Part shown: in pieces, positions 412 to 34,215 of the stretch
Layout: each line of letters begins with the position of its first letter
How positions within the stretch are numbered: position 1 is the first letter of the stretch
NCBI GenBank assembly: GCA_040398805.1
Contig: JBBATK010000010.1
Location: 18,113-82,112 of the forward strand
DNA length: 64,000 bases
Source of the DNA: Candidatus Kapaibacterium sp.
Lineage (GTDB): Bacteria; Bacteroidota; Ignavibacteria; Kapaibacteriales; NICIL-2
Reading direction: 5' to 3'
Program-made: the position numbers and the translations under genes
The notes under the pieces: model-generated
Seen by the model: the letters and a program-made list of their open reading frames with translations, nothing else
Told to the model about the DNA's origin: nothing
Databases searched by the model: none

Positions 412-501
412 AGGAGTCGCAGGGTTCGTAATCGAAGGAATCAGACAAAAAAAATGCGCTCGCACCTCAAGGTACGAGCGCATGACTAGGTTCATGCCGG
501 G

Positions 502-1341
502 TTAGAGAGCAAAGCGTGCTTCGATTCCGGCCTGCAATGCGTTGATCTTCCACGAGTCTGTCGACGTCATGTCCGTGAGACCGACGTTATAATGCAACGA
601 GGGAATCAACGTGAGCTTACGGAGGATGATTTCGTACTGCATACCGAATTTCAACGCAAAGCGGAAAGCGCTGGCGTTCTTGATGTCTTCATCACGGATG
701 ATAGCGGTGCGTCCGAAGTCCTCATACCGAATGGGCTTCACGGCAGCGGTATCGGGCGGGGGCACAAGACGGGCGTTCAGCGGCTCGATGAGCATGAACT
801 TCTGCACGGCTTGTTGTGTCATCGCGAAACCGGGAGCGATACCCGCGGTAAGACCAAGCGGGGTGGCACCAAGGTTGAAGCGATACATGATGTCGAGGTC
901 GATGGTCGTGTACTTGATTTCCGCCACGTGTTGCGTGGTCGTGAAAATCACCGTATCACGGTTGTTGACGGCATCACGGACGAGCGACGGCAAACGGTCA
1001 CCGGATTGGGTGAAGCTCGAGGGAAGATTGTCGTAGATGACCCGTGCGATGATGGAGGACTTCGATGTCTTGGGATCACCGAGAAGGTATTCAAACGCCC
1101 ATCCGGCAAAGAAACCGCTTCCTGAACCATCGGTGAAGGTCGGACAGTTCACGTCGTTGCTGAACGACGGGAAACCACCGGAATTCATGACTCTGTTGTA
1201 GCCCACGATCGGTCCCATGTAGATACGCGGCGGTGCTTTTCCGGCCGCAATCGGGCTTACATCTTCCTCATCTTGGGCAAAGGCGTTTTGGCACGTCAAG
1301 CTCAAGGCGAGCAGAAATACACACAACAGACGAAACTTCAT
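502..1341 (-). CDS. Outer-membrane beta-barrel protein. Signal peptide, alternating amphipathic strands, C-terminal aromatic residue
   Basis: N-terminal MKFRLLCVFLLALSLTCQNAFAQ. Ends ...EARFAL. Gly/aromatic-rich amphipathic strands. Lies 9 nt downstream of the giant T9SS cargo gene on the same strand. Confidence 0.6.
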   Translation of the reverse strand: MKFRLLCVFLLALSLTCQNAFAQDEEDVSPIAAGKAPPRIYMGPIVGYNRVMNSGGFPSFSNDVNCPTFTDGSGSGFFAGWAFEYLLGDPKTSKSSIIARVIYDNLPSSFTQSGDRLPSLVRDAVNNRDTVIFTTTQHVAEIKYTTIDLDIMYRFNLGATPLGLTAGIAPGFAMTQQAVQKFMLIEPLNARLVPPPDTAAVKPIRYEDFGRTAIIRDEDIKNASAFRFALKFGMQYEIILRKLTLIPSLHYNVGLTDMTSTDSWKINALQAGIEARFAL

Positions 1342-1349
1342 AATGTCCC

Positions 1350-4300
1350 CTACTTAAAAAACATGATAGGAATTTGAAACTCGATGTCCCTCGATTGCAA
1401 CTCAATGCGGTATAGACCGTCGGTAAGTGAGTGCGTGTCGAAAATAAGAGAATTGAGTCCCTTCCGCAAAAACAATTTTTCCGCTATGGGAAATTTCCGT
1501 CCGAGTATGTCCACAGCATGAACAGCGAGTGAAATGCCGTCGATTTTCGACTCGATTTCCGCATGCAATTCGTCGCCTGCCGGCACCGGATACATCGCCC
1601 GCACGACCACGTCGGCGAAGGCGATATGACGCACGTCTTCGGCACACACGGGCGCTATGCTCAACTGTGTCGTATCGCGAGCACCTGCATAGCAATCGTC
1701 GTGCTCGATCGTTGTCACGACCGACGCTTTTTGCTGCTGTGAAAGCAAGGCAAGACAGGGAACTTCGACTGTCCAATCCTCCGCTTGACCGACAACGATC
1801 CGCTGTTGTGTCTCGATGCGTAAACCACCGGCTGTGCGCAGGACATTCACCGGTTCGAGCGCGCCCGTGGTTCGACGCTTCAAGACGGCCTTGTCACTGA
1901 ACGGGACGAGCATGGAGGGTGGGATGGAGGAGCTGACAGCGAACGTGACGGGCCGGGAGGGCGCGCTGCGTTCCCAGCGACCGGAGTACACCAAAAGGAC
2001 CGTATCGTCCGGCGTGCCTGCGACGGGCCCCAGAAGAGCCACGAGCGCGGATGCCGATCGAGTCGTCACGCTTATCGTCGTATCAATCGTCCACACACCG
2101 GCCCGAATGGTCGTCCGGAGCGTACCGGACCGAATGGGAGGCGTAAGAACGCCCCGGACCGAGTCCTGGGTCCCTGCCTGCACGATTCTCACCCCAGGGT
2201 ACTGGATGAGCGTATCGGAAGAGATGTTCGTCCGAACCTTGATATCCGTCACCGATATGGGCACGGTATCGATATTGACGATGGCGATGGAGTAGCGGAC
2301 GGTATCGCAGACGAAACCCGAGTTCTGCGAGATTCTAACGGTGGGACGCCGTGCCTTCGGTTTCGTCGTATCCGTCGTCGTCGTATCGTCCGTCGTCGTA
2401 TCCCTTGCCCACCCGCGTATGACGATGGTGCTCTCCTTCCGGAAATACGCCCGGTCCGCATCATGACGCACCACGAGAGTCATCGTATGGAACCCCGCAC
2501 GCTTCGGCACGAAATCGATGGCCGAAACGAGACTATCCCCGGATTGCATGACGCGATACCCGCGATCGCGATCAGCGATACGGAACGACGATGCGTCGGG
2601 TCCTTGGATGGTGATCGTATCCACGGTCAGCGGCTCGTTCCCGAAAGCGAGAACCAATCGGGATGATTTCCGCTGCACCGCCCCCACGGCGATCGTATCG
2701 AAATCCACATCAGCGACGGTGATTTGCGGCACCGTGCCACGTCCGCGCAGAGAGATATCTACGGACGGCTCCTTGGCCCGTTTCGATACGAAGCCGAGGA
2801 CCGAGCGATAGCTCCCTGTGGTCAAGGGATAGAATCGCACAGGGATGACGAACGAATCCCGCGGGACGATGATCACGTTTCGTCCTGCCGGCAACGAATG
2901 CAGGAACTCCTGCGTATCTCCGCGTTGCGACGCATACACAAGATTAGCCGTGGCATTTCCCTTGTTCCGGATCACCACGTTCGTGTCGATGAAGGTGGCT
3001 ATGCGGCGGGAACCGAAGTCGATGCTATCATACATGAGCAGCGAGCGTATTCCCTGACCTCGCACCTCACCTTGGACATCCAGGCCGAGCGAGTTCTCGA
3101 ACATCATGATGCGCTTGAGATCGAAGGTATCCGTCGGTGCGAAGCAGACACGTAGAGCCATGGAGTCTCCGGGCGCTAACGTCTTCGGCAACGAGGTCGC
3201 CGCATCGGTTGTGAAGACCGCCGTCGGAAAACTCAGATAGGCCTTCGTGATCGTCGCCGTCCGTGTTCCGCTGTTCGTCACTTTCATGGTCGTGCAGACC
3301 GTGTCGCCGATGTATACCTGACCGAAATCCACGTCTTCTACGCGCATCGCGGACGTCGGTGTGGTACCCTTGACGACCACCCGGATGCTGAGTCCGCACC
3401 CGATATCGAATATCACCGTATCTGTCACCTTCAATCCGCTTTGTCCCTTCGGCAGGAAGCACATGGCGAAATCGATACCTCCTTTGTTCGGAACACGAAG
3501 AGGGAACGGTAACAGACTATTGAGGACGAACTCCTTGGTATTCCCCGCCAGACGCACGGATCGCAGAATGAGCGAATCCGTTGCCGACGGGTTCTGGACG
3601 AACAATCGCTGACAGAGGGAGTCGTTCTCCGTCTTCGTCGTGAACAGGAGCGATGTCGTCTGCGTGAATCGCGGTGATTTGTAGTAGTATCGGAACACCC
3701 GTCCGTTCCCCGCCTTGTCGCGCGTCACGATGAAGATCTGCGCGTCCTTGTACGGATTCGTCGGTCGTGCCGTCCACGTCATCGTGTTCGGGTCGCCGGC
3801 CACGTTCACCGCCGAGAAGTCATAATTCTTCGTGCTATCCGCATCGATGGCAACGAAGGCTATGCCCGTACTTGTCGAGGTGACTACCTCGCGCACGGAC
3901 CCCGTGAGCACGCCGCACGACACAGCGTACGAGAACTGCGGCGCAAGCGTATCGCTCTTTCCGGCAATGGTTGCGAACCCTAGCGTATGCGCGTAGGAAT
4001 CCGTGTAGCCCATACCATATAAAGTTCCGGTGAAGAACCCCGTGTCGCAGGTGATCTCATGTTTGCCGGGAGAAATGGGGATGACCGCCCAGAAGAACGG
4101 CGATGAGCGGAACTTGGCGGTCAAAATCTCGGGGGCGATGCTCTTGCCGATGTTCACTCCGTCCAGCTTCAAGGAGGTGCGCGCAAGCGAATCACACATG
4201 AGATTGACGAAGTGTCTCTGATACTGCGTAGCGAAAGCCGGCTCTCCAAGGTTGAACGGAGCTTGGAAGACACTTCGCGTGATGTATTTGTCCGTGGGTG

Positions 4301-5405
4301 CGATGATCGTGAGCGAGGGGTCGTATCCCGACGAACCGCCCACCGAGCCCGTGAGCATGTATTGACCGATGGTCACGGGCTTGTCGGCCCGGATCCACGC
4401 GGGTGAATTCACGCCGCTCATTGTCTGTATGTCGCCGGCGTTGGTCAGCATATACGAGAAATCCTGCCTCTCCGTGTACACGCTGATCCTTGTATTCGGT
4501 TGCGTGGCGACGATGCGGATGATATCGCCGACGGGTATCCTGGCGTCCGTATAGAACGGCGTCGTGAAGTACTCGTTCGTCAGGGTCTGGTCCGGCATGA
4601 GCCACTCCGCAAGATGGTCCTTGCTGTCCGCCGTCGTGACAAGTCCTTGAGGGACCGACGTGCGCGCGTGACCCGAGATGACGGCAATGGGACGGTTAGC
4701 GCGGATAAAACTGCCGGTAAGATCGCCGAGTTTGGGGGCGATGGGAGCGGACTTCACCAGGTAACACTGGCCTCTTTGCAAGGTGATTCTGCGTAGTTGC
4801 CCCGCCGGTATGCCGCCTTCGCTCGGCGCGGTGAGCAGAAGATCCACTGAGGTGTTGTCTTCGGAGGCCATGACGAGGAACTCGCTTTGGCGGATCTCCG
4901 ACGGTGGTATGCCCGTCGTATCCGTACCGAAACCGTATGCATCGTTCGGCATGCTCAATACCGTGTATTGCGTACCCCAGTTCGATACCGGTATCACTGC
5001 GTAGGAATCCGAGGTGGTGAACTGCGAGTTCATGGCATAGACGGCGATGGGAACGTCCGACGTGACGCGCACAAGGTTCGGCTTGACCACCTCGCTTTCA
5101 CGCATCTCCAGGATCGACGGAACGACAAGCGCGAGGGTGGAATTCGCAGAGATCGCATACGGGGTGGCGGAGCCGCCGGGGAATTGCACGGACACTTTGG
5201 CGGGCAACGACGTGGCGATGACCAAGCGCAGACGCAGGCCGGACGATTGGATGAAGTTCTCGTTCTGCATGTAGCCGACAAGGAAATCATATCCTTCGAA
5301 CGAGGAACCGCGCCGCTGCGCAAGCGAGTCCGTGAACTGCGCCGACACATGGCCGGCACACAGCCATATCGCAAGGACCGCCACTATGATTCGGATTCGT
5401 ACCAT
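1350..5405 (-). CDS. Giant secreted T9SS cargo protein A (1351 aa): signal peptide, IgGFc-binding-like N-domain, ASH/DUF1573-like repeats, type-A T9SS C-terminal sorting domain
   Basis: Signal peptide MVRIRIIVAVLAIWLCAGHVSAQ. N-region alignable by eye to protein B (IRIVATQPNTRISVYT vs IRIVATEDNTIVYTKT; GQYMLTGSV vs VGQYGKAW). Repeats start VDFGQVYIG, IDFGSRRIA, VDFDTIAVG. C-terminus ...DGLYRIELQSRDIEFQIPIMFFK is CTD-like. Confidence 0.8.
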   Translation of the reverse strand: MVRIRIIVAVLAIWLCAGHVSAQFTDSLAQRRGSSFEGYDFLVGYMQNENFIQSSGLRLRLVIATSLPAKVSVQFPGGSATPYAISANSTLALVVPSILEMRESEVVKPNLVRVTSDVPIAVYAMNSQFTTSDSYAVIPVSNWGTQYTVLSMPNDAYGFGTDTTGIPPSEIRQSEFLVMASEDNTSVDLLLTAPSEGGIPAGQLRRITLQRGQCYLVKSAPIAPKLGDLTGSFIRANRPIAVISGHARTSVPQGLVTTADSKDHLAEWLMPDQTLTNEYFTTPFYTDARIPVGDIIRIVATQPNTRISVYTERQDFSYMLTNAGDIQTMSGVNSPAWIRADKPVTIGQYMLTGSVGGSSGYDPSLTIIAPTDKYITRSVFQAPFNLGEPAFATQYQRHFVNLMCDSLARTSLKLDGVNIGKSIAPEILTAKFRSSPFFWAVIPISPGKHEITCDTGFFTGTLYGMGYTDSYAHTLGFATIAGKSDTLAPQFSYAVSCGVLTGSVREVVTSTSTGIAFVAIDADSTKNYDFSAVNVAGDPNTMTWTARPTNPYKDAQIFIVTRDKAGNGRVFRYYYKSPRFTQTTSLLFTTKTENDSLCQRLFVQNPSATDSLILRSVRLAGNTKEFVLNSLLPFPLRVPNKGGIDFAMCFLPKGQSGLKVTDTVIFDIGCGLSIRVVVKGTTPTSAMRVEDVDFGQVYIGDTVCTTMKVTNSGTRTATITKAYLSFPTAVFTTDAATSLPKTLAPGDSMALRVCFAPTDTFDLKRIMMFENSLGLDVQGEVRGQGIRSLLMYDSIDFGSRRIATFIDTNVVIRNKGNATANLVYASQRGDTQEFLHSLPAGRNVIIVPRDSFVIPVRFYPLTTGSYRSVLGFVSKRAKEPSVDISLRGRGTVPQITVADVDFDTIAVGAVQRKSSRLVLAFGNEPLTVDTITIQGPDASSFRIADRDRGYRVMQSGDSLVSAIDFVPKRAGFHTMTLVVRHDADRAYFRKESTIVIRGWARDTTTDDTTTTDTTKPKARRPTVRISQNSGFVCDTVRYSIAIVNIDTVPISVTDIKVRTNISSDTLIQYPGVRIVQAGTQDSVRGVLTPPIRSGTLRTTIRAGVWTIDTTISVTTRSASALVALLGPVAGTPDDTVLLVYSGRWERSAPSRPVTFAVSSSIPPSMLVPFSDKAVLKRRTTGALEPVNVLRTAGGLRIETQQRIVVGQAEDWTVEVPCLALLSQQQKASVVTTIEHDDCYAGARDTTQLSIAPVCAEDVRHIAFADVVVRAMYPVPAGDELHAEIESKIDGISLAVHAVDILGRKFPIAEKLFLRKGLNSLIFDTHSLTDGLYRIELQSRDIEFQIPIMFFK

Positions 5406-5476
5406 GCTCGTGTTCGTCGCTCTTGACTGTGTTCAACGCCATCGCCGAAGGAAGCGCTCCGGCATATACCACACCA

Positions 5477-7069
5477 TCAGGGCTTTCTCGGAGGCAGCGG
5501 TACCATGGGAGATTCCGCGGCACCGGATGGGGACGTCCCACTTCCCGATTCGCATCGACGGCGTATCTCCGCCTCCTTCTGCAGGCTCGGTCCAAGGAGC
5601 GCTTTCGCGGGACGCGTACCGATGTCCTTGTAGGAAGGAAGATAATACCGTACCACCCCATCGCCAATGACATTCTCGGGGTAATACTCGCTCGATACCC
5701 CGCTCCGCCAGATGATGGAATCGACCGCGCCCGCGGAAAAAAGGATGACGAGCGAATCGCACGCCGTGCGTGAGGCTCCGGAGGGACCGTCATCGCCTTG
5801 CATGAAGTAGAGACTGGCGGCGTTCCTCACTCCCGATATGCCTCGGACGGTATCGTCCTTCACGGTGATATGGATGGACTCCGCTGCGATCTGCTGCGAC
5901 CTGCTTCCCGATGCCGAATCTTTCAACAAAAGGAATGCCGTCCCGGCGGCATGCACCGCCCGCAATTGTCTCGTCGTAAAATCCACATCGATGGAGTCCG
6001 CATGCAACGACAGCGAATCCGCCCACAATCGGGGCTCCCCTCGAAGCATGAACGTCTCCGCCGTGGCATCATACCGACTGGTGGAAGATCTTGTTGCCAA
6101 CCGTCCGCGAACGATTTCCACGTCGCCCTGCGCGTCGTACCGTTCATGCGATGGCCGACGAAAAGCTTCCATCCTTTGCGCGCGAATCGTCAGGGTGTCC
6201 ACCGCACGCTGCGCTCCCTCCCGTCTCGTATCCGAGCGGGACGTCGTGTCCGTCACCACAGGCACCGCGGGCTGCATCGTATTCGTCCGCTTCCTTCCTT
6301 TGCGCTGACGCTCCCTTGGTACCGCTCCCGTCGTCGAAACCGAGACCGTATCCCTCGTGGTCGTTCCGCCGGCAACCTGCCCTTGCGACGTCTGTGGTAG
6401 CGATGCCTGTTGTTGCGCTGCGGTATCCGTCTGCTCGAGCAGAGCGTGCCCGTCGATACGCGAGTAGGCATCGGCGGGACGATTGTAGGCGCTATCGCCG
6501 GCAAGGATGACGGCGGACTTCTTGTTCCGCACCACCACGTCGCCCCATGCCCAGCTCTCCTGGGAGGTGCGGGAATACCGACCTTGCTCGGCGGTGATGC
6601 GCAACGAATCGTCGTCGATGAACACACCGCTCATGAATTCGACGATGGCGGTGGTGGTATTGTACATGCCATCCGGGGCACGAAGGTTCATGGAGCGGTC
6701 CAGGATGCGGACGCCGCCCGAACCCGTGGCGATCCCCTTCATGCCGTCGTATTCACCCCGCGGCATCATCATGGTCATGGTCCCTTGGATGATCCTCACC
6801 GAGCCGCGAAGCAGCACCGTATTCGCCACGGGAAAATGCGTTGCGCGGTCGCAATACACCGTCACATCGCCATGAACAAGGTGCACCCTTCCCGTCAATT
6901 CGCGCACGCCGACGGAGTCCACCGTACTCACTCTGTACTCATCCGCATAAACCAGCACGATGGGGTCGCCATTGGTAGGCGTCATGGCGCATGCCGCATG
7001 CGCAAGGCATGCGGACGCCGCCACGATCGCGGCGATACGGCACAAGGACATGAGGAGACGGGGAAGCAT
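5477..7069 (-). CDS. OstA/LptA-like domain protein with two OstA-like beta-jellyroll regions and a low-complexity linker; signal peptide
   Basis: LVYADEYRVSTVDSVGVRELTGRVHLVHGDVTVYCDRATHFPVANTVLLRGSVRI is an LptA/OstA_N-like pattern. A second copy follows: ...VHAAGTAFLLLKDSASG...IHITVKDDTVRGI. Start set at MLPRLLMSLCRIAAIVAASACLAHAACA; the ORF-track start at 7129 is probably an N-terminal over-extension. Confidence 0.55.
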   Translation of the reverse strand: MLPRLLMSLCRIAAIVAASACLAHAACAMTPTNGDPIVLVYADEYRVSTVDSVGVRELTGRVHLVHGDVTVYCDRATHFPVANTVLLRGSVRIIQGTMTMMMPRGEYDGMKGIATGSGGVRILDRSMNLRAPDGMYNTTTAIVEFMSGVFIDDDSLRITAEQGRYSRTSQESWAWGDVVVRNKKSAVILAGDSAYNRPADAYSRIDGHALLEQTDTAAQQQASLPQTSQGQVAGGTTTRDTVSVSTTGAVPRERQRKGRKRTNTMQPAVPVVTDTTSRSDTRREGAQRAVDTLTIRAQRMEAFRRPSHERYDAQGDVEIVRGRLATRSSTSRYDATAETFMLRGEPRLWADSLSLHADSIDVDFTTRQLRAVHAAGTAFLLLKDSASGSRSQQIAAESIHITVKDDTVRGISGVRNAASLYFMQGDDGPSGASRTACDSLVILFSAGAVDSIIWRSGVSSEYYPENVIGDGVVRYYLPSYKDIGTRPAKALLGPSLQKEAEIRRRCESGSGTSPSGAAESPMVPLPPRKP

Positions 7070-7210: not shown

Positions 7211-8527
7211 ATGTATACCGAATCGACAAAGCTTCAACAGGAAACCGCGATCGTCATCTCCGTGGGGCGAAAAGGTGAGGACCGAGCTCTCGTCCGCGAG
7301 CATCTCGAAGAACTCGTCTTTCTGGCGGAAACGGCACAGGTATTCGTTGCGGAGACGATGATCCAGGAACGCGTCTCGCCGGACGTGGCCACCTACATCG
7401 GCAAGGGGAAGGTCCAGGAACTCAAGGAACTCGTGGAACAGCACGATGCCCACGTCGTCCTTGCCGACGACGAACTATCGCCCGTACAGATACGGAATCT
7501 GGAACGCGAACTGAATGTGAAAGTGCTCGACCGCAGCGCTCTGATCCTCGACATCTTCGCCACGCGCGCACGGTCCCTGGAGGCCAAGACCCAGGTGGAG
7601 CTAGCGCAGTTGCAATATCTCATGCCGCGCCTTTCACGCATGTGGACACACCTTTCCAAGCAGTACGGGGGTGTCGGCACGAAGGGGCCGGGAGAAACCC
7701 AGATAGAAAGCGACCGCCGGATGATCCGCTATCGCATCCAGCGGCTGAAAGAGAAACTGCGTGACATCGACGTCCAACGGAAAGAACAACGGAAACAGCG
7801 GGGAGCGCTCACGCGCTTCGCCCTTATCGGTTATACGAATGCGGGTAAATCCACGCTCATGAACGTGATGACGGATGCCAAGGTGTACACGGAAGACCAG
7901 CTCTTCGCCACCTTGGACACGACAGTACGCCAACTTGAACTGCCTGCGGGCACCATCGCTTTGCTCTCCGACACCGTCGGGTTCATTCGTAAGCTTCCCG
8001 CACACCTCATCGCGTCGTTCCGTTCCACCCTGGCGGAGTCCATGGAAGCGGACATGCTCATCCATGTCGTGGATGTCAGCCACCCTGCCTTCGCGGAACA
8101 CATGGCGGTGGTCGATGAGACCCTGAAAGAACTTCATGCCGAGCAGAAACCGCTCGTGCTCGTGTTCAACAAGGTTGATGCGGTGGAGGATAAGGACCTG
8201 CTAGAAACGCTCGCGCATGAGTATCCCGATGCCATCCAGCTATCGGCGCAAAAAGGACTCAACGTCCGGTCGCTTCTTCGCCGCATGCAGGAATTCTGCG
8301 ACTCCTGCGCCGATGTCGTGGAACTCTTTCTTCCCTTCTCCGCCATGAACAAGGTGGCGGCGCTATATACGACGGCGGAAGTGATCGAGCGTCGGGATGA
8401 GGACGAAGGCGTGTACATGAAGGTGCGGGTACCGCCACCTCAACAGAAATTGATGGAATCGACGTATGGCGAGTATATTCGTGCACACGAGACGGCCGAG
8501 CCGGCTGTCGTCAACGTGGATGCCTGA
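7211..8527 (+). CDS. hflX: GTPase HflX
   Basis: G1 motif GYTNAGKST, DTVGF, NKVD. Length and N-terminal HflX domain are typical. Confidence 0.9.
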   Translation: MYTESTKLQQETAIVISVGRKGEDRALVREHLEELVFLAETAQVFVAETMIQERVSPDVATYIGKGKVQELKELVEQHDAHVVLADDELSPVQIRNLERELNVKVLDRSALILDIFATRARSLEAKTQVELAQLQYLMPRLSRMWTHLSKQYGGVGTKGPGETQIESDRRMIRYRIQRLKEKLRDIDVQRKEQRKQRGALTRFALIGYTNAGKSTLMNVMTDAKVYTEDQLFATLDTTVRQLELPAGTIALLSDTVGFIRKLPAHLIASFRSTLAESMEADMLIHVVDVSHPAFAEHMAVVDETLKELHAEQKPLVLVFNKVDAVEDKDLLETLAHEYPDAIQLSAQKGLNVRSLLRRMQEFCDSCADVVELFLPFSAMNKVAALYTTAEVIERRDEDEGVYMKVRVPPPQQKLMESTYGEYIRAHETAEPAVVNVDA

Positions 8528-9355: not shown

Positions 9356-10891
9356 TTAGCGAGTGACGATGCCGCGGAGCGAGCGGACCGTTCCATCGTT
9401 CAGGTGCAGGGTCACGAAGTACACACCATGCGGAAGATCGGGGAACACTATCCGTTGACCTCCGGTTTCGGAACCTCTCTCGCAGTTACCGACCACGTCA
9501 CCACGCACATCATACACCAGCACGTGGCGGACGGCGGATGTGTTGCCGGTGTGGACGACAAGGTCGCCGTTCGATTCGCACACGACCCGCTCCTCGTCGC
9601 GCACCCGCCCCTCGTCCACGCTCGTGGATTTCACCGGCGTGACGGTAAGGATGAAGCGCGTGTTCGCATCACTGCCCACGTACAGACGTCCTTTGGCGTC
9701 CACGGTCAATCCTACCGGACGAGCCCAGCCCCATCCCGAGCTCCGTGTGGAGTCCGTCATGAAGCCCGTCAAAAAGTCCGCCGTGTAATTCGCCGTCGTA
9801 TCGTTCTCGTTGTCGAAATCAAGATAAATAATCTTCCCGCCGGTTGCCGGTGTGCGGTTCCATGATCCCCGGAGTGCCACGAACATCCCGTTCCTGAACG
9901 TCTGCGGCATGCTCGGATGAGCAGACACCAGGGCCATCGGCGCGCTGTGCGCCTGAATGAGACCCGCGGGTTGTACCATACTTGCCACGTTCGCCGAATC
10001 CTTCGCCGTTAACGGCAGCAAGGCACGATAGTCACCCGGTGATGACGAGCTCAAGGGAAAGAAGATTCCGTGGGAATGCGCATACGGGTATCCGTAGAAA
10101 CCTCCGTCGCGGACCACGTCGATCCACTCAGGAGGCACGTCGTTACCTTGACTGTCGCTTCCGTTGTTCGATGCCCAGACCCTGCCTCCGCGCAGGAGCA
10201 GTCCCACCGCATTCCTCGCCCCCGTGGCATAGGTCTTCCGTCCCGTGCCATCCGCGTTCCACTCTTCGATCAACGCTCGCTGATAATCCGTATCCCCGGG
10301 CTTCTCGGACCTGCACACGTTGCACAGCGAACCGATGGACAGATACACTTTGCTCCGCACGGTGTCGAAAAGGATGGTACGGGTGGTGTGACCGCCACCG
10401 GGCTGCGTCGCTCCCTCGGCTATGGGCGCAATGAAATCGCTTCGCGTCTCATACCGTCCGTCGTTGTCAAGATCCTGAAGGCGCACCACCGACCGCTCTT
10501 GGGCAGCGTACAGATCGCCACGATAGAAGGCGATGGAATGGGCGGTAACGTTCGTCGCCACCGCGATGATCGTATCGGCGATGCCGTCGTCGTTGCGATC
10601 CGGAAGCGCATAGATGGAACGCGCATCCAGATCGGCGATATGCAAGACGCCATCCGGACTCCACTCCATGAATCGAGGTTTCCTCAGTGCCGCACCGGCA
10701 TAGAACACGGACACCGTGAAGCCCTCAGGGACGTTCACCCGCGCAGTCGCCGGCAACACACCACGATACTTGACGGGCTGGTCGATGAGAACCGATGTCA
10801 AAGGGATCTGCTTGTACGGGGTCATGACCGGGACGTCCTGCGCAACCATCGACGTATAGACAACCAAGAAGACGAAGACGTTCTTTATCAT
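9356..10891 (-). CDS. PQQ-dependent soluble sugar (glucose/sorbosone-type) dehydrogenase beta-propeller with type-A T9SS C-terminal sorting domain
   Basis: Signal peptide MIKNVFVFLVVYTSMVAQ. sGDH-like propeller motifs (GDLYAAQ, RYETRSDFIAPI, HTTRTILFD, YGYPYAHS). C-terminal ...LVYDVRGDVVGNCERG...LPHGVYFVTLHLNDGTVRSLRGIVTR is CTD-like. Confidence 0.75.
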   Translation of the reverse strand: MIKNVFVFLVVYTSMVAQDVPVMTPYKQIPLTSVLIDQPVKYRGVLPATARVNVPEGFTVSVFYAGAALRKPRFMEWSPDGVLHIADLDARSIYALPDRNDDGIADTIIAVATNVTAHSIAFYRGDLYAAQERSVVRLQDLDNDGRYETRSDFIAPIAEGATQPGGGHTTRTILFDTVRSKVYLSIGSLCNVCRSEKPGDTDYQRALIEEWNADGTGRKTYATGARNAVGLLLRGGRVWASNNGSDSQGNDVPPEWIDVVRDGGFYGYPYAHSHGIFFPLSSSSPGDYRALLPLTAKDSANVASMVQPAGLIQAHSAPMALVSAHPSMPQTFRNGMFVALRGSWNRTPATGGKIIYLDFDNENDTTANYTADFLTGFMTDSTRSSGWGWARPVGLTVDAKGRLYVGSDANTRFILTVTPVKSTSVDEGRVRDEERVVCESNGDLVVHTGNTSAVRHVLVYDVRGDVVGNCERGSETGGQRIVFPDLPHGVYFVTLHLNDGTVRSLRGIVTR

Positions 10892-12143: not shown

Positions 12144-12426
12144 GGAATCACCTCGTTCGTGGTGGTGGTGGTGGGTGAGACGTACCTTATGAGAGATTAA
12201 GACTATTTTATCTGCAATCTACGCAACGAACCGAAAACGAGCAAGGATGATCGATGCTTTTTATCCACAGCACATGCTTTCCCGGCGGTCCGAGCCGGTG
12301 TGGGACCCACCATCCGGAGCGCTCTGGGGAGGAGGCACACGTTTCCCGATTGCCGGCATACCTGACGTGGCGAAATGCGTCTGTATCTTGCGTCTCTGCA
12401 TCCAATCGACCGACATCACGGAACTC

Positions 12427-15400
12427 ATGGCCGACACCGCACCACCGTTATTACCATTGGTACGAGCATTCGAGCGCACGTCCTTCCATCGACGACTGCG
12501 CAGCGCACTGGACACCGGTGAGCAGATCCGTACGCGTACCTTGCGGGGGTCCTTGAAGTCCTTGGCGGTGGCCTCCGTGCATGTCCATGCCCGACGTCGC
12601 CTGCTTGTCGTCTGCGCTCCGGAGGTCGTGTCGGCGTGGTACCACGACCTTGCCTCCATGGTGCCGCATACCTCCATCGCGGCTTTTCCCGAGGCGTCGA
12701 AGACGCGAACGGCCATCAGTCATCATCACGAAGACATGGCCCGCATCGTCGACGTGGTATCCACCATCGAGAAGAGTCCGCTCGCCATCATCATCGCAAC
12801 GCCCGCCTCGTTCAGCGTGCCGTTGCCGAAGCCGGAATCGGTGGTTCACAACTCGATGAAATTGAAGCGCGGCGACACGCAGGGTTTCGATGAACTCACG
12901 ACGCACCTGCTTCTCAATGGGTTCGAGCGACGTGATTTCGTGGCGCAACCGGGCGACATCGCCGTGCGCGGCGGCATCATCGACCTCTTCCCCGTTGGTT
13001 GGTCCACGCCGTTGCGCATAGAGTTCTGGGGGAACAGCATCGACTCCGTGCGGGAATTCGATCCCTTGTCGCAGCGGAGCATCCGTGAGCATGAGTCCGT
13101 GGAGTTCCTGGCCCGCTTCATCAGCGACGAGCACGACGAGTTCTCCTGCCGGCTCAGCGACTATGTCTATCCCGATACCCAGATCGTGCTCGACGAGCCG
13201 GATCATCTCGCCTCCTTGTTCGATGATCTTGACGCGACGACGTTGAGCGAGGACTTGAGCGCTCGGGCCACGCTCCTGATCAATCCCATCGGCAGCTGCA
13301 TCATCGAGACGCAATCCCACGCACAACTGTCCGCCGATGCCTCCATGGATGCCGTCTACGACGAACTCATCCGTCACCAGCAGAGCGGGACCGCCGTCTT
13401 CGTGTGTGCAGAAGGTACCATCCACACCAAGCGCATGCACGAGTTGCTGGAGAACGTCGCGGAACGTCGGGAGGCCGATGACGATGCGGAGACGCACCTG
13501 TCCACCGATCGCATTCACTGGTTGCACGGAACGCCGCACGCCGGCTTCACGTGGACCGAGGAACGCCTTTGCGTGATGACGGAGCACGAGGTGTTCAACC
13601 GGCAGCGCTTCCGCGATGCGCGACGCTACGCACCGTCCGCCGGCCTCACCCTGCGCGAGCTCCAGCAGCTGCGGCGGGGCGACCTCATCGTGCATATCGA
13701 TAAGGGGGTGGGTCAGTTCGACGGACTCGAGACGATAACCATTTCCGGGAGCAAGCAGGAAAGCGTCCGTCTCGTCTTCGCCGACAACGACGTGTTATAC
13801 GTCCATTTGAATTACCTCAACAAACTGCAACGCTACTCGGCGGCCGAAGGCACATCGCCGAAGCTCAGCAAACTCGGCAGCGGCGATTGGGAACGGAAGA
13901 AAGCGCGGACGAAGAAGAAGGTCAAGGACATCGCCCGGGACCTCATCAAGCTCTATGCCCAACGGAAATCCCTTCGCGGCTATGCCTTCCCCGCCGATAC
14001 GATCTGGCAGAAAGAGTTCGAAGCGTCGTTCATGTACGAGGATACGCCGGACCAGTCGCGCGCCACGGCCGAAGTGAAAGCGGACATGGAAGTGCCCATG
14101 CCCATGGACCGATTGGTGTGCGGCGATGTCGGCTTCGGCAAAACGGAAGTCGCCATCCGCGCCGCCTTCAAAGCCGCGCAAGCCGGCAAACAGGTGGCCG
14201 TGCTTGTTCCCACGACCATCCTTGCACAGCAGCATTACCTTACCTTTAGCGAACGATTGCGACGCTATCCCGTGACGGTGGACGTCATGTCGCGCTTCCG
14301 CACGCCCGAGGAGCAGAAATCCGTCGTGGAACGCCTGAAGAACGGCGACGTCGACATCCTCATCGGCACCCACCGGTTGCTGAGCAAGGACGTGGAGTTC
14401 CGGAATCTCGGATTGCTCATCATCGACGAGGAGCAACGCTTCGGTGTGGGCGCTAAAGAGAAACTGCGGACGCTGCGTGCGAACATCGATACGCTGACAC
14501 TCACGGCAACGCCGATCCCGCGGACATTGAACTTCTCCCTCATGGGTGCCCGCGACCTCAGTCTCATCGAGACCCCTCCGCGGAACCGCCTGCCCGTGCA
14601 GACGAGCATCATCGAATGGGATGCGGACATCCTTCGCGAAGCGATCAACAGGGAACTCGAACGAGGCGGCCAGCTGTACCTGGTGAACGATAGTATTCAT
14701 GAGCTGGACGAGATAGCGATGCGCCTTGTGGAGATCATTCCCGGTCTGCGCTTCGGCATCGCACACGGACAGATGGACACCAAGAAACTCGAGAACGTCA
14801 TGGAACGTTTTCTCGAACGGAAATTCGACGTGCTGCTCAGCACGAAGATCGTGGAGAGCGGTCTGGATATCCCGAATGTCAATACGATGATCATCAACCA
14901 CGCCGACCGCTTCGGACTTGCCGAACTGTATCAGCTGCGCGGACGCGTGGGACGTTCCAATGCGCAAGCATACTGCTATCTCTGCGTGCCGCCGGTGAAG
15001 ACCTTGAACCGCACCGCCATCCGGCGCCTGCAAGCCATCGAAGAGCACACCGACCTGGGAAGCGGATTCCACCTTGCCATGCGGGACCTGGAGATACGCG
15101 GCGCCGGAAATCTTCTCGGGGCGGAACAAAGCGGATTCATCGCCGAACTCGGACTGGAGACCTATCAGCGTATCGTCGATGAAGCCGTCCGCGAACTCCG
15201 TCATGAGGAATTCAGCGACATGTTCCCCGAAAGCGAACTCCTCAACGTATCGAACGAAGACCTGGCGGTGGAACTGGACGGCGATGCGCTTCTTCCCGAA
15301 TCGTATGTGCCGAAGGACACCGAGCGTTTCGAATTCTACAAACGACTCTTCAACGCCCGCACGGAAAGGTCGCTCGAGGATATCGCCGGCGAATTGCGCG

Positions 15401-15741
15401 ACCGGTACGGCGCACTGCCGGACGCTGCGGAGAACCTGCTCTTCGCCGTGCGCCTGCGCCTTGCCGCACTGCCCGCCGGTTTCGATCGTCTTCTCGTGGC
15501 GAACGACCGACTCACCATCGAAATCGCCGCGAATATTCCCGAACAGTACGTCCAGCATGCCTTCCCCCGCGTCGTGAGCCGCGTCTCGCAGCGGGAAGGA
15601 TCGCAGTTCAAACAGAATCAGAAACGGATCATCATCGACATCCCGCTCGCACGACGGGAGGAAGCTCTCACTCTTGTGCAGTCGCTTTCCCTTGATGTGC
15701 AAGAAGCACTGATGTCGGCCTCGAAAAACCATGCGGCATGA
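12427..15741 (+). CDS. mfd: Transcription-repair coupling factor Mfd
   Basis: DEAD/helicase motifs (GDVGFGKTEVA, DEEQRFGV, TATPIPRT), TRG motif region, about 1100 aa. Start chosen at MADTAPPLLPL; the ORF-track start at 12247 is likely an over-extension. Confidence 0.9.
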   Translation: MADTAPPLLPLVRAFERTSFHRRLRSALDTGEQIRTRTLRGSLKSLAVASVHVHARRRLLVVCAPEVVSAWYHDLASMVPHTSIAAFPEASKTRTAISHHHEDMARIVDVVSTIEKSPLAIIIATPASFSVPLPKPESVVHNSMKLKRGDTQGFDELTTHLLLNGFERRDFVAQPGDIAVRGGIIDLFPVGWSTPLRIEFWGNSIDSVREFDPLSQRSIREHESVEFLARFISDEHDEFSCRLSDYVYPDTQIVLDEPDHLASLFDDLDATTLSEDLSARATLLINPIGSCIIETQSHAQLSADASMDAVYDELIRHQQSGTAVFVCAEGTIHTKRMHELLENVAERREADDDAETHLSTDRIHWLHGTPHAGFTWTEERLCVMTEHEVFNRQRFRDARRYAPSAGLTLRELQQLRRGDLIVHIDKGVGQFDGLETITISGSKQESVRLVFADNDVLYVHLNYLNKLQRYSAAEGTSPKLSKLGSGDWERKKARTKKKVKDIARDLIKLYAQRKSLRGYAFPADTIWQKEFEASFMYEDTPDQSRATAEVKADMEVPMPMDRLVCGDVGFGKTEVAIRAAFKAAQAGKQVAVLVPTTILAQQHYLTFSERLRRYPVTVDVMSRFRTPEEQKSVVERLKNGDVDILIGTHRLLSKDVEFRNLGLLIIDEEQRFGVGAKEKLRTLRANIDTLTLTATPIPRTLNFSLMGARDLSLIETPPRNRLPVQTSIIEWDADILREAINRELERGGQLYLVNDSIHELDEIAMRLVEIIPGLRFGIAHGQMDTKKLENVMERFLERKFDVLLSTKIVESGLDIPNVNTMIINHADRFGLAELYQLRGRVGRSNAQAYCYLCVPPVKTLNRTAIRRLQAIEEHTDLGSGFHLAMRDLEIRGAGNLLGAEQSGFIAELGLETYQRIVDEAVRELRHEEFSDMFPESELLNVSNEDLAVELDGDALLPESYVPKDTERFEFYKRLFNARTERSLEDIAGELRDRYGALPDAAENLLFAVRLRLAALPAGFDRLLVANDRLTIEIAANIPEQYVQHAFPRVVSRVSQREGSQFKQNQKRIIIDIPLARREEALTLVQSLSLDVQEALMSASKNHAA

Positions 15742-17125
15742 CCTTGCACCATATCGTTACCTGCTTCGCGCCGTCGCACTTCTCGTACTCGTGTGCGCAT
15801 GCGGCGCGGCGTCAAGGTCGGCCGACACGCTTCAGACGAAACGGCGGCTTCCGGGAGCGGTGAACGAGTATGCGCCGGTCGTGTATCCCCTCTTGAGTTT
15901 CGATGGTCGCACCCTGTACTTCTCGCGGAAGTACCATCCGGAGAACGTAGGAAAGACGCGGGACGCGGACGATGTGTGGTCATGCTCACGGGACAGTGCC
16001 GGGACGTGGTCGGAAGCGACGGATGTCACCCGGTTCAACTCACCCGTCAGCGACGTGCTCTGCAGCATCTCGCCCGATGGAACCACCGCTCTGCTGGCAC
16101 GGACAACGTCGGAGAATGACGCGCCCAGCGTCCGACTGTTCGTCATGAACCACACCGATTCAGGCTGGAGCGGACCGAAGCCCGTAACGATCGACGGGTT
16201 CATCGGTCGCACGTCGCATATCTACGCCCATCTCTCCTTCGATAACGCTACGCTGTTCCTGGCCGTGGACGTACCCGACCGCGGAATGGACATCTTTTCG
16301 TGCTCGCGTGTGGACTCCGTGCCCGATGCCTGGGTATTCAACCGACCGGTATCGCTGGGCGAGATGATCAATACCAAGGGTATCGAAGGTTCGCCCTTCC
16401 TGGCGTTCGACGGACGTACCTTGTATTTCACCTCGGATGGCCATGGAGGCTATGGAAGTCAGGATGTATTCGTGACGCGTCGACTCGATAGCACGTTCAC
16501 GTCGTGGTCGGCACCGGAAAACCTTGGAGACGGCATAAACACAGGGCTCATCGACCATTGTTTCTCGCTCTTCGCCGATGGTACGACGGCACTGATCGTG
16601 TCGGCGGACTCCTCGCGGAGCACCGGTGTCTTCGAAGTCACTCTTCCACCGAACCTGCGCATGGGACCCTCGATCGTGGGATCGGGCTCCGCTCGGCCGA
16701 CCACGGACACGGTGGTCGTCACCGTGACGTTCCCGACAAACAAGACGCGGATACGGGAAACGAATATCGACTCTCTGGTTCTTGCAAAGGTCCGCCGACT
16801 GCGTGGCACCTCCGTGCGGGTCGTCATCAGCGGCCATACGGACATGACCGGTATCGAGGCGAGGAACTCGTCACTGTCCATGCGACGGGCGCTGGTGCTG
16901 CGCAAGACACTCCAAGCGGTGTTCCGGAAGCGTGCGCCCGGACTGCGCGTGACAGCCATGCAATGCGCGGGCAAAGGCATGTCGGAACCCATCGGCGACA
17001 ATGCGACGGAGGCAGGACGTCAAGCCAACCGTCGGGCGACGGCGCGCATCATCATCGGCACAACACCGTCAAAAACGAATGGCGACACTGACCGCGGCGG
17101 CAGACCCCGTCGTCGGCGACGCTGA
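15731..17125 (+). CDS. TolB-like beta-propeller / OmpA-family C-terminal domain protein (peptidoglycan-associated)
   Basis: Signal peptide. Repeated FSxDGxTLYF propeller blades. C-terminal OmpA-like RVVISGHTDMTGIEARNSSLSMRRALVLRKTL...ANRRATARII. Overlaps the mfd 3' end by 11 nt. Confidence 0.75.
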   Translation: MRHDLAPYRYLLRAVALLVLVCACGAASRSADTLQTKRRLPGAVNEYAPVVYPLLSFDGRTLYFSRKYHPENVGKTRDADDVWSCSRDSAGTWSEATDVTRFNSPVSDVLCSISPDGTTALLARTTSENDAPSVRLFVMNHTDSGWSGPKPVTIDGFIGRTSHIYAHLSFDNATLFLAVDVPDRGMDIFSCSRVDSVPDAWVFNRPVSLGEMINTKGIEGSPFLAFDGRTLYFTSDGHGGYGSQDVFVTRRLDSTFTSWSAPENLGDGINTGLIDHCFSLFADGTTALIVSADSSRSTGVFEVTLPPNLRMGPSIVGSGSARPTTDTVVVTVTFPTNKTRIRETNIDSLVLAKVRRLRGTSVRVVISGHTDMTGIEARNSSLSMRRALVLRKTLQAVFRKRAPGLRVTAMQCAGKGMSEPIGDNATEAGRQANRRATARIIIGTTPSKTNGDTDRGGRPRRRRR

Positions 17126-25195: not shown

Positions 25196-25709
25196 GGTAT
25201 CCTTCGAAAAAAAAAGTTTTCGTCGAGACGATGAGGGCTGTCGTCGCGACGGACCCGCGACAGGCGCACAAACGCCTGCCTACGGGTGTCGCCGGATGCG
25301 TAAACTAACATCCGCACAGGGTAGGCGGCAAAGGACTTTACCCGAACGACGCCGGGAAATGGACGGACGAAAGGATGCTGTCCGAACGTTGCCGTCCTCT
25401 CGCGAAAAAAGATTCGGTCATTGTACTATTCCGTGGTAGATTCACGCATGCACGCGACGCTGTTCGTGACCTCCCATGCGGATGTCAAGCCCAAGCGCGT
25501 GTGAGAGTGGCAGACGATCGTTACTGCACGCACGGGAAGAACACGGAGACATCGGAAGACGCAACGGGGACGGGGAGAAGATGGAGACTCTGGCGATGCA
25601 GTGAAACGTCGCAACGAACGGATGAGGTAGGGATACGCACCGCGTGCGGTTTCCGACGTCCGTACTGAACCTTGATGATACTTTTTCCAACATCTTACCT
25701 AGGAGTTCC

Positions 25710-33614: not shown

Positions 33615-34215
33615 ACTCAGTGCACGGAGAAGATCTGCCATCCAACATCGCAATCCGTGCGCGCGATGTCTCGTCATGAATAGAGTTTTCCACATAGTTC
33701 CGACTCGGACGACCTTATTAATTGTAGAGTTTATTTTATTGACTATCAACGCTTTAACATTCCACCAGGTCAAGCGAGACAGTAGATCCTAGCTGTGTTT
33801 TCCACAACAGAGGTACCCATACGATCAACCATTCACCATGGACTCCTTGACGTCGTTGACAGGGATGTCACGTTCACTCAGCCGCACGGAAAACAACCGT
33901 GCACGACCGGAGCTCACGCTCCGTCCCACCACCATATCACCTCCGGAAACGGTCGCATCGAGAGACACATCCAAGGGATTGCAGCGGTCATGACACCCTC
34001 GACGATCGCCACGGAACACCCGTCGAACCTTTCCGCGAGTGTCCACGCGGGACATCATTCACTCCCACCCGGATTGTTACCAAATCCACACATGCGTGTT
34101 CATTGCCACCCATCCTCACTTCAGTAACTTTGTACACTCTCTTTCGGGTACCTACACCCGACTTTCGTTTGGACGTAACGAACACGTAGTATCATTCATA
34201 CATTCTCCATTCATT

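Follow-up and report, generated by a model that had tools for sequence, protein, structure and literature searches.

A conserved envelope gene cluster of Kapabacteria encoding an LptA-like protein, a giant predicted type IX secretion cargo and a small outer-membrane β-barrel

Organization and conservation of the gene cluster

The minus strand of the window (the whole 64,000-nt stretch of DNA that was analysed) carries three co-directional genes which encode, from upstream to downstream, an OstA-like protein, a giant secreted protein and a small outer-membrane β-barrel (Table 1). The ORF coordinates bear out the one-directional trio of the original prediction, with gaps of 71 and 8 nt; in orthologous loci, the gap between the OstA-like and giant genes has a median of about 35 nt. 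The only terminator-like hairpin in the trio, a strong one, begins 19 nt past the stop codon of the barrel gene and is likely the end of the transcription unit. The genes for the giant protein and the barrel probably share a transcript and are expressed in step.

Table 1. Features of the three-gene locus (positions are those of the window).
Feature	Position	Strand	Remarks
Intrinsic-terminator-like hairpin	444..483	-	13-bp stem with 8 G-C pairs, 4-nt loop, T7 run
Small outer-membrane β-barrel, 279 aa	502..1341	-	Signal peptide MKFRLLCVFLLALSLTCQNAFAQ; Kapabacteria-lineage-specific family
Giant secreted protein, 1351 aa	1350..5405	-	Signal peptide MVRIRIIVAVLAIWLCAGHVSAQ; orthologues of 1326-1392 aa
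Diverged T9SS type A CTD (aa ~1262-1351)	1353..1622	-	Placed by orthologue alignment; 'MYPVPAGDEL...GLYRIELQS...IPIMFFK'
Ig-like repeats of the ASH / HYDIN / choice-of-anchor D type (aa ~677-890)	2736..3377	-	PF15780, PF22544, PF22073; NF012200 72 bits
IgGFc_binding-type N-terminal domain (aa 133-464)	4014..5009	-	PF17517, E 1e-48
Spacer between OstA-like and giant genes	5406..5476	-	71 nt, without terminator-like hairpin
OstA-like gene, read as a long two-jellyroll LptA orthologue	5477..7069	-	530 aa from ATG 7069
Second β-jellyroll of the OstA-like protein (aa 290-465)	5675..6202	-	pLDDT ~90; LptD_N match
Disordered S/T/Q/R-rich linker (aa 218-288)	6206..6418	-	pLDDT <50; D-T-A, D-T-V and D-T-T motifs
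First β-jellyroll of the OstA-like protein (aa 38-216)	6422..6958	-	AF2 pLDDT >90; OstA_2 match

The full trio was found in identical order and orientation in 49 of the 63 species-level genomes with sufficient flanking DNA and is thus not a chance feature of the window's genome, while the giant and barrel genes occurred without the OstA-like gene in 14 of the 63. With regard to the two downstream genes, adjacency was observed in 64 of 68 genomes, always with the giant gene upstream and usually with a gap of 8-14 nt, so that the link between cargo and barrel raised in the original prediction proved to be tight and evolutionarily conserved. Further, the pair is kept despite quite different flanking genes in L081 and in the loci that lack hflX. 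The invariant core of the cluster is the giant and the barrel, independent of the neighbouring genes, and many genomes also retain the synteny of part of the wider neighbourhood (hflX, usp and a PQQ-like gene).

All cluster loci belong to one lineage, Kapabacteria. In two genomes (L044 and L056), the giant gene is inverted and lies about 3 kb from the barrel gene; the gene that precedes the barrel gene there (584 aa) was considered as a candidate OstA-like gene and rejected, as it encodes an MsbA-like ABC exporter. No matches to the PADLOC anti-phage defence models were obtained, and literature searches that combined T9SS with OstA or with Kapabacteria, or that covered PF17517 and IgGFc-binding, retrieved nothing on the trio cluster.

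The giant secreted protein and the small barrel

The giant protein begins with a Sec signal peptide, as read from its sequence, and the IgGFc_binding-type domain is its best conserved part according to the conservation profile. Searches for sequence relatives in the PDB with the single sequence and with a profile of the N-terminal family gave none. At the other end of the protein, where two invariant cysteines (C1238 and C1254) precede the CTD, the window copy did not match any T9SS CTD model at E-values up to 10, neither as the full protein nor as its last 95 residues. However, TIGR04183 matched 26 of the 40 aligned orthologue C-termini (best E 7.9e-11) and the L081 orthologue carries PF18962, CTDs that are shared with the type A pathway (PorV shuttle, PorU sortase and A-LPS attachment); a type B CTD model was not among the families reported for the orthologue C-termini. 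The proposed status of the giant protein as T9SS cargo, namely of type A, is hence supported by orthology, and the call rests on the orthologues because the window copy has no CTD match of its own. Other proteins within the window carry Por_Secre_tail, as products of type A cargo genes, and a paralogue of the giant protein with a good CTD (window positions 25644-30002) has no adjoining barrel gene.

The barrel was described in the original prediction as a 279-aa protein with a signal peptide and a terminal aromatic residue. Its length and signal peptide were upheld, but the sequence ends in ...RFAL, which places the aromatic residue at -3 and not at the terminus. Within the family, 51 positions are conserved at ≥90%, and GPxVGxN, C66-P-x-F, SKSSIIAR, QYE and RFAL are invariant motifs, whereas overall identity falls as low as about 37% in the loci where all flanking genes differ (L081, L047-L079 and the exception loci). 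The AF2 model (pLDDT 84.9, mature protein of about 255 aa) matches the fold of the small 8-stranded OmpA/NspA/OmpW class and not that of the 14-stranded FadL class, the model itself having about 12 β segments. The OmpA N-domain, OmpX/Ail, NspA, OmpW and PagL are smaller than the trio barrel and have no significant sequence similarity to it, the latter being set apart by its family-specific motifs and a single invariant cysteine. A search of the PDB with the barrel family profile retrieved no sequence relatives. Foldseek matches to the β-domains of the autotransporters EstA, EspP and Hbp were weak (TM 0.19-0.29), and a pore helix is missing from the model; an autotransporter-like barrel is not supported.

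In the scan for generic barrel models (PF13505 and PF13568), 15 of 26 family members gave weak OMP_b-brl matches (best E 8e-6), while the window protein itself reached only 17.6 bits with OMP_b-brl_2, below the gathering score of 27. None of the same 26 members matched PorP_SprF or T9SS_PorP_fam at E-values up to 1 (Pfam and NCBIfam), and neither did the window barrel, which agrees with the earlier remark that the barrel lacks PorP features. A PorP/SprF-type identity, to which the original prediction had likened the barrel, was rejected (PF11751 and TIGR03519) on the grounds that no T9SS barrel model matches, that the fold is not of the FadL class and that the partner has a type A CTD.

What the trio does have in common with the SprB-SprF and PG1035-PorP systems is the conserved pairing of a gene for a large secreted surface protein with a following gene for an outer-membrane barrel. 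PorP-like barrels have 14 strands, belong to the FadL family and are partners of cargo with type B CTDs (PMC9143113), in contrast with the small OmpA/NspA-class barrel and the type A CTD of the trio. A functional analogy to PorP/SprF, in which the barrel would serve a single cargo as its dedicated partner in the outer membrane, is nevertheless plausible. Type A cargo uses PorV and covalent LPS attachment, with no known need of a private barrel (PMC9143113, PMC12618676); unlike known type A cargo genes, which have no private barrel gene, the giant gene has one immediately downstream and an LPS-transport gene upstream.

With regard to cysteines, the barrel has one that is invariant (C66) and the giant protein has five. 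An intermolecular disulfide deduced from this parity was rejected, since conserved cysteines are odd in number in the barrel-less paralogue too, which makes the argument weak.

The barrel family recurs as the C-terminal domain of six Kapabacteria VIT-VWA proteins. Four of these six fusion genes are preceded, at a distance of 10-17 nt, by a gene for a single-TM anti-sigma-like protein with a type A CTD-like C-terminus, and the order ECF sigma, single-TM anti-sigma-like protein, outer-membrane barrel protein was observed at L109, L110, L115 and L116. These four loci are a second, independent pairing of the barrel family with a CTD-bearing protein. Outside the barrel, the fusion proteins show no homology to the giant or the OstA-like protein, and the CTD is the sole part that the small CTD proteins and the giant protein have in common. 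Since VIT-VWA and the giant protein are not related, the fusions point to the barrel as an anchor module and not to binding of the giant protein. The fused paralogues, and only they, resemble FecI-FecR-FecA-type signalling sets in the order of sigma factor, anti-sigma factor and outer-membrane protein. However, FecA-type proteins are 22-stranded TonB-dependent transducers, whereas the fused paralogue combines VIT-VWA with a small barrel, and its anti-sigma-like neighbour, unlike those of the FecI-FecR-FecA sets, has a C-terminal domain that resembles the T9SS type A CTD.

The OstA-like protein and its relation to LptA

The OstA-like gene has alternative starts at ATG 7114 (545 aa) and GTG 7129 (the 550-aa maximal ORF), and a protein with 98% identity to that of the window (P0076) begins at the equivalent of ATG 7114. 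Its assignment as OstA/LptA-like in the original prediction was confirmed by profile search, with scores of 58.4 bits for Pfam OstA_2 (cut-off 21.2) and 31.8 bits for LptD_N (cut-off 20.4), and by an AF2 model with two β-jellyrolls that can be superposed on LptA, on LptC or on the N-terminal part of LptD, i.e. the clan of Lpt β-jellyroll proteins (PF03968, PF13100 and PF06835). In line with this, the family profile matched LptA, LptH and LptD only when compared with the PDB. The match to the LptA equivalog TIGR03002 was partial (24.3 bits, aa 311-396) and below the cut-off of 71.7; this model derives from short single-domain LptA proteins. LptA (E. coli YhbN) and LptH comprise about 185 aa and one jellyroll, whereas proteins of the window's family have two in tandem and span about 430-530 aa, and the window copy differs further from LptA/LptH by a 70-aa disordered insertion and its low TIGR03002 score.

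The first jellyroll holds a conserved 'G-N-V-x-V-x-C-D-R-A' stretch, the cysteine of which (C73) is kept in 47 of 50 sequences. The long low-complexity linker noted between the jellyrolls is present in the window protein; nevertheless, its columns are gaps in most orthologues, which are of 420-470 aa and devoid of it, so that this feature is an insertion restricted to the subclade of the window copy and not a trait of the family. All orthologues have a cleavable hydrophobic signal peptide, judged by eye, ahead of the conserved 'P-I-x-L-x-x-A-D-S' of the mature protein and, unlike LptC, no TM anchor.

The window contains no lptC, lptB or kdsD, and none of these genes was found up to 10 kb from any trio locus; the Kapabacteria gene differs from those of LptA/LptH in not lying beside lptC/lptB and in heading a cluster with T9SS cargo. 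In Kryptoniota and other Bacteroidota, full-length relatives fill the lptA slot of kdsC-kdsD-lptC-X-lptB operons. Specifically, relatives that align with window residues ~10-490 lie between LptC and LptB at L090, L095 and L112-L114, with KdsC and KdsD upstream, and the one from the Kryptoniota locus (L090) was named LptA by JGI; at L096, too, a relative lies between lptC and lptB. In an NJ tree, the trio-linked sequences have these operon-linked ones as their sister clade. Further, the OstA-like gene lies apart from the giant gene in some Kapabacteria (L083), and an LPT-type pattern scan of Kapabacteria contigs of 2.17, 0.92 and 0.55 Mb detected the trio-linked copy only, which is suggestive, and no more than that, of a sole lptA copy on the 2.17-Mb contig.

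The trio-linked OstA-like gene is thus probably the lptA of the lineage, which would have moved out of the lpt operon in most Kapabacteria. If a second canonical lptA were present elsewhere in the genome, the trio-linked copy may instead be a specialised paralogue. A role of the OstA-like protein as a shuttle dedicated to the giant protein was not supported, in view of the relatives in the lptA slot, the separation of the two genes at L083 and the giant-barrel pairs without an OstA-like gene.

A two-layer model of the cluster

The explanation that we favour, and regard as reasonably probable, is a two-layer conserved envelope cluster of Kapabacteria, consisting of a core of cargo and partner barrel to which a relocated LptA has been added. 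After Sec-dependent export, the protein of about 1350 aa would be secreted via the type IX system by means of its type A CTD. The barrel would be its dedicated outer-membrane partner, a plausible anchor or receptor by analogy, possibly binding the CTD or the CTD-proximal region. The upstream LptA, predicted to be soluble and secreted with two Lpt jellyrolls, would form the periplasmic part of the LPS bridge; having left the ancestral lptC-lptA-lptB operon in most Kapabacteria, it would now head the trio. In Porphyromonas, type A cargo is LPS-anchored, and the placement of LptA may therefore couple LPS export to surface-protein production, or it may be operon hitch-hiking. The diverged CTD of the window copy, the paralogue without a barrel, the inversion in L044 and L056, the lack of a known need for a private barrel among type A cargo, the absence of kinship between VIT-VWA and the giant protein and the 24-bit score with TIGR03002 were counted against this explanation.

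Operon inertia, by which an LptA, a T9SS adhesin-like protein and a generic OmpA/OmpX-like protein would have been kept together in one class without forming a functional module, is unlikely, although several observations are in line with it: every locus comes from a single lineage, the synteny extends to hflX, usp and the PQQ-like gene in many genomes, the closest folds of the barrel are generic small outer-membrane proteins and the paralogous cargo needs no barrel. It accounts poorly for the adjacency of giant and barrel, which outlasts a full change of flanks and a drop in barrel identity to the lowest level observed, at constant spacing. The barrel family is, moreover, lineage-specific and highly conserved, and it has been reused as a covalent anchor domain beside CTD-bearing proteins.

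A private transport module, with the OstA-like protein as periplasmic shuttle for hydrophobic or lipidated cargo and the barrel as a PorP/SprF-type T9SS shuttle or anchor, would be compatible with the conserved order and short gaps in the 49 genomes, with the clade that the trio-linked OstA-like genes form apart from the lpt-operon-linked ones and with the fact that PorP/SprF genes typically adjoin their cargo genes (PMC9143113, PMC12618676). Given what is described above on the identity of both proteins, we consider it very improbable. There is similarly little to recommend a lipid- or LPS-handling barrel, be it an enzyme like PagL or a conduit for hydrophobic molecules like OmpW/AlkL, that together with LptA would ready or present LPS for the covalent attachment of type A cargo: sequence similarity to PagL or OmpW was not found, the structural matches are generic among small barrels and a small barrel's polar core would account just as well for the charged residues that are conserved.

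The two-layer model can be extended, speculatively and with a rather low chance of being correct, to the barrel family as a third class of receptor for T9SS CTDs beside PorV and PorP/SprF. Such a receptor would bind a type A-like CTD and hold the 1350-aa protein at the surface; its VIT-VWA form would be coupled to an anti-sigma protein with the same kind of domain, and LptA would head the operon as display needs newly exported LPS.

If the cluster is conserved synteny only, the finding is an ordinary one. To our knowledge, private outer-membrane partners have so far been known for type B T9SS cargo only (PorP/SprF), with type A cargo regarded as dependent on the common PorV/PorU route. If the favoured model is true, the known modes of T9SS substrate retention would be broadened by a conserved type A cargo that has a structurally different barrel to itself, to which the reuse of the barrel beside CTD-bearing anti-sigma-like proteins would add, and the giant and the barrel would provide a defined two-gene system for a poorly studied lineage. 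For annotation, two-jellyroll 'OstA-like' proteins in this part of the FCB group can be read as the product of the lptA-slot gene, the Kapabacteria copy of which lies outside the lpt operon.

Synteny of the giant and barrel genes

The original prediction described an OstA-like gene, a gene for a giant secreted protein and a gene for a small outer-membrane barrel as one minus-strand arrangement. The ORFs confirmed this layout, with three co-directional genes separated by gaps of 71 nt (OstA-like/giant) and 8 nt (giant/barrel). A terminator-like hairpin lies 19 nt past the barrel stop codon, and none comparable was found between the trio genes; over the trio region, the total count of terminator-like sites was not above that of shuffled sequence.

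Features of the window and, where a locus (L number) is named, of fetched loci from other genomes
Feature	Coordinates	Strand	Remarks
HIT-family gene	1-413	minus	motif DHLHMHLLPRW; past barrel terminator, continues beyond window edge
Terminator-like hairpin	483-454		13-bp stem and T7 tail
Barrel ORF	502-1341	minus	279 aa
Giant ORF	1350-5405	minus	1351 aa
OstA-like ORF	5477-7069	minus	530 aa from ATG 7069; maximal ORF to GTG 7129
Disordered linker of OstA-like protein	6206-6418	minus	contains D-T-A, D-T-V and D-T-T motifs
HflX gene	7211-8527		upstream of trio, divergent orientation
PQQ-dehydrogenase-like β-propeller protein	9356-10891	minus	511 aa; borderline type A CTD (TIGR04183 22.7 bits, cut-off 23)
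Mfd	12247-15741		
PD40 (TolB-like β-propeller) repeat and C-terminal OmpA domain protein	15731-17125	+	464 aa; adjoins Mfd
Giant paralogue	25644-30002	+	1452 aa; IgGFc_binding, Ig repeats, Por_Secre_tail above cut-off
Large secreted protein	34039-38217	+	Ig_3/I-set repeats, Por_Secre_tail above cut-off
Large secreted protein	38316-42266	+	ASH/Cep192-type Ig repeats; no CTD detected
ECF sigma/anti-sigma-like/fusion sets	L109:5885-11843; L110:300-6775; L115:2684-8555; L116:2880-8513		
MsbA-like ABC exporter	L044:7885-9639; L056:7631-9391; L110:7014-8729		ABC_membrane and ABC_tran, ~570-586 aa

Co-occurrence of the genes was analyzed in 80 loci fetched with the barrel as anchor, one per species-level genome. 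Of 68 informative loci, 64 have the giant gene directly upstream of the barrel and in the same orientation, which substantiated the proposed tight cargo-barrel link; in the remaining four, the giant ORF is either fragmented at the same site (two loci) or inverted approximately 3 kb away (two loci). The intervening gap is usually 8-14 nt and 180-300 nt in a few clades. Complete OstA-giant-barrel order was observed at 49/63 loci, while the other 14 have unrelated housekeeping genes upstream. The trio is also kept where all flanks differ, as in L081, where RuvA and HisF adjoin one end and HIT, KsgA and PAP2 the other, the HIT gene again being the neighbour beyond the barrel. Given these frequencies and the changing flanks, the invariant core consists of giant and barrel, with the OstA-like gene (probably lptA, see below) as a frequent yet dispensable third member.

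The giant protein and its paralogue

Pfam and NCBIfam searches of the giant revealed IgGFc_binding at the N-terminus (E 1e-48), along with Ig-like repeats of the ASH/HYDIN/choice-of-anchor D type; no sequence relative was found among solved structures. Its orthologues are of near-constant length (1326-1392 aa), with conservation highest in the N-terminal half and lowest at residues 1000-1250. Neither the window protein nor its last 95 aa scanned separately matched a T9SS C-terminal sorting domain (CTD) in these databases. However, when C-termini were aligned across orthologues of 40 genomes, 26 matched the type A model TIGR04183 (best E 7.9e-11), and PF18962 was present in the L081 orthologue. 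On the strength of these aligned matches, the segment 'MYPVPAGDEL...GLYRIELQS...IMFFK' of the window copy is a diverged type A CTD, and the predicted status of the giant as T9SS cargo holds by orthology.

A paralogue in the window shares 28% identity with the giant over the N-terminal 500 aa. It adjoins neither a barrel nor an OstA-like gene; its upstream neighbours are Lgt and a Kdo-transferase-like ORF. Five cysteines are invariant in the giant (C497, C670, C1033, C1238 and C1254), of which C1033 and C1238 are missing from the paralogue without barrel. In many other Kapabacteria, the paralogue is located ~3 kb downstream of the barrel and is followed by a PQQ-like T9SS protein; the PQQ-dehydrogenase-like gene of the window is likewise syntenic with the trio cluster in many genomes. 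T9SS cargo is abundant in the window, where two further large secreted proteins (34039-38217 and 38316-42266) are encoded side by side.

The barrel family and its fusions

Single-sequence and profile searches yielded 75 and 193 clusters of barrel-family proteins, respectively, with source names that were all Kapabacteria-lineage or generic Bacteroidota labels. Some locus-bearing public MAG records are labelled Hyphomicrobiales, Patescibacteria, Chitinophaga pinensis, Bradyrhizobiaceae or Didemnitutus (L009, L015, L016, L024, L031, L046 and others); such implausible labels probably reflect mislabelled bins or contaminant contigs. Conservation reaches at least 90% at 51 positions of the family, and the only invariant cysteine, C66 (77/77), is part of a C-P-x-F loop motif.

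The cargo-barrel arrangement had been likened to that of PorP/SprF-type partners. While the linkage of the barrel to cargo stood, membership in that family did not: no family member matched PorP_SprF, TIGR03519 or other T9SS barrel models, and generic OMP_b-brl models gave weak matches alone. PorV and PorP-like proteins are described as 14-stranded FadL-family barrels, the latter pairing with type B CTDs (PMC9143113; PMC12618676). The AF2 model of our barrel (pLDDT 84.9, about 12 β segments) instead best resembled small barrels, with target-normalised Foldseek TM values of 0.52-0.60 for OmpA, Ail, NspA and OmpX vs. 0.16-0.22 for FadL, which places it outside the PorP-like family.

An exhaustive profile search retrieved 1398 relatives, among them proteins of 890-1394 aa, again from Kapabacteria, with N-terminal VIT and VWA domains and the barrel as C-terminal domain. 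In these fusions, the barrel match begins right past the position where the signal peptide of the stand-alone barrel ends. Both forms coexist in one genome (L025 and L117; assembly prefix CAZSHX01). Of six fusion loci, four (L109, L110, L115 and L116) encode an ECF sigma factor, then a 500-570-aa anti-sigma-like protein and, 10-17 nt later, the fusion. All four anti-sigma-like proteins end in a Por_Secre_tail domain, which shows up to 35% identity (E 2e-8) to CTDs of giant orthologues; the two sequences read, those of L109 and L110, also have a single TM helix. This set resembles a system for cell-surface signalling assembled from T9SS-type parts.

In two independent settings, the barrel family therefore comes after a protein with a type A CTD-like domain at its C-terminus, which favours a putative role as partner or receptor. 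Within the fusions, the binding partner could instead be the VIT-VWA part. An MsbA-like exporter adjoins the stand-alone barrel in L044 and L056 and directly follows the fusion in L110, which may be coincidental or may point to lipid export.

The OstA-like gene as a probable lptA and a proposed model for the trio

The predicted OstA/LptA-like nature of the first protein was upheld by Pfam matches above cut-off (OstA_2, 58 bits; LptD_N, 32 bits) and by a profile of 14 orthologues, for which LptA, LptH and LptD were the only matches in a search of all PDB sequences. All orthologues have a cleavable signal peptide and a conserved mature N-terminus, which argues for a soluble, periplasmic protein; C73 is its single conserved cysteine (47/50 sequences). 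Orthologues are mostly 420-470 aa long, the long linker being restricted to the subclade of the window. The Bacteroidota O-glycosylation motif is D-(S/T)-(A/I/L/V/M/T), which the D-T-A, D-T-V and D-T-T motifs of the linker would fit. A Prevotella OstA-like_N protein is reported to be the most heavily O-glycosylated protein of that organism (PMC10897501), by analogy only a lead for the linker.

Metagenome contigs scanned from an OstA-like alignment placed the relatives in two gene contexts. The first has giant and barrel downstream and, in most cases, hflX on the upstream side. In the second (L086, L087, L090, L095, L096, L100 and L102-L106), the OstA-like gene is flanked by LptC and an LptB-type ABC ATPase, with KdsC and KdsD upstream, matching the E. 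coli order kdsD-kdsC-lptC-lptA-lptB; L112-L114 hold the complete set KdsA-KdsC-x-KdsD-LptC-OstA_2-LptB. For L090, from a Kryptoniota bacterium, the JGI annotation gives LptA for the OstA-like protein and LptB for its neighbour. In an NJ tree, operon-linked sequences formed the sister clade of trio-linked ones, and a trio-clade gene stands on its own next to nadC in a Kapaibacteriota locus (L083). Neither the window nor ±10 kb of any trio locus contains lptC, lptB or kdsD. The simplest reading is that the OstA-like gene encodes, in Kapabacteria, the orthologue of a long two-jellyroll LptA and has departed from the lpt operon. The scan covered contigs, and a second lptA may exist elsewhere in these genomes; on three Kapabacteria contigs (2.17, 0.92 and 0.55 Mb), patterns that detect LPT-type genes found the trio-linked copy alone. 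With relatives between LptC and LptB and a giant-barrel pair that can dispense with it, the protein is LptA-like and not, as had been suggested, dedicated to the cargo.

We propose that the trio is transcribed as one unit ending at the hairpin. The giant would be exported by Sec, fold in the periplasm and be secreted by the T9SS via its type A CTD, and the barrel, as the next cistron, would be made in step and hold or receive the giant at the outer membrane. The leading position of LptA in the cluster may couple LPS export to the display of an LPS-anchored type A cargo, or may reflect operon history. Compared with the known arrangement of a T9SS cargo with a private outer-membrane barrel, the trio combines a type A cargo with a small, lineage-specific barrel as its putative partner.
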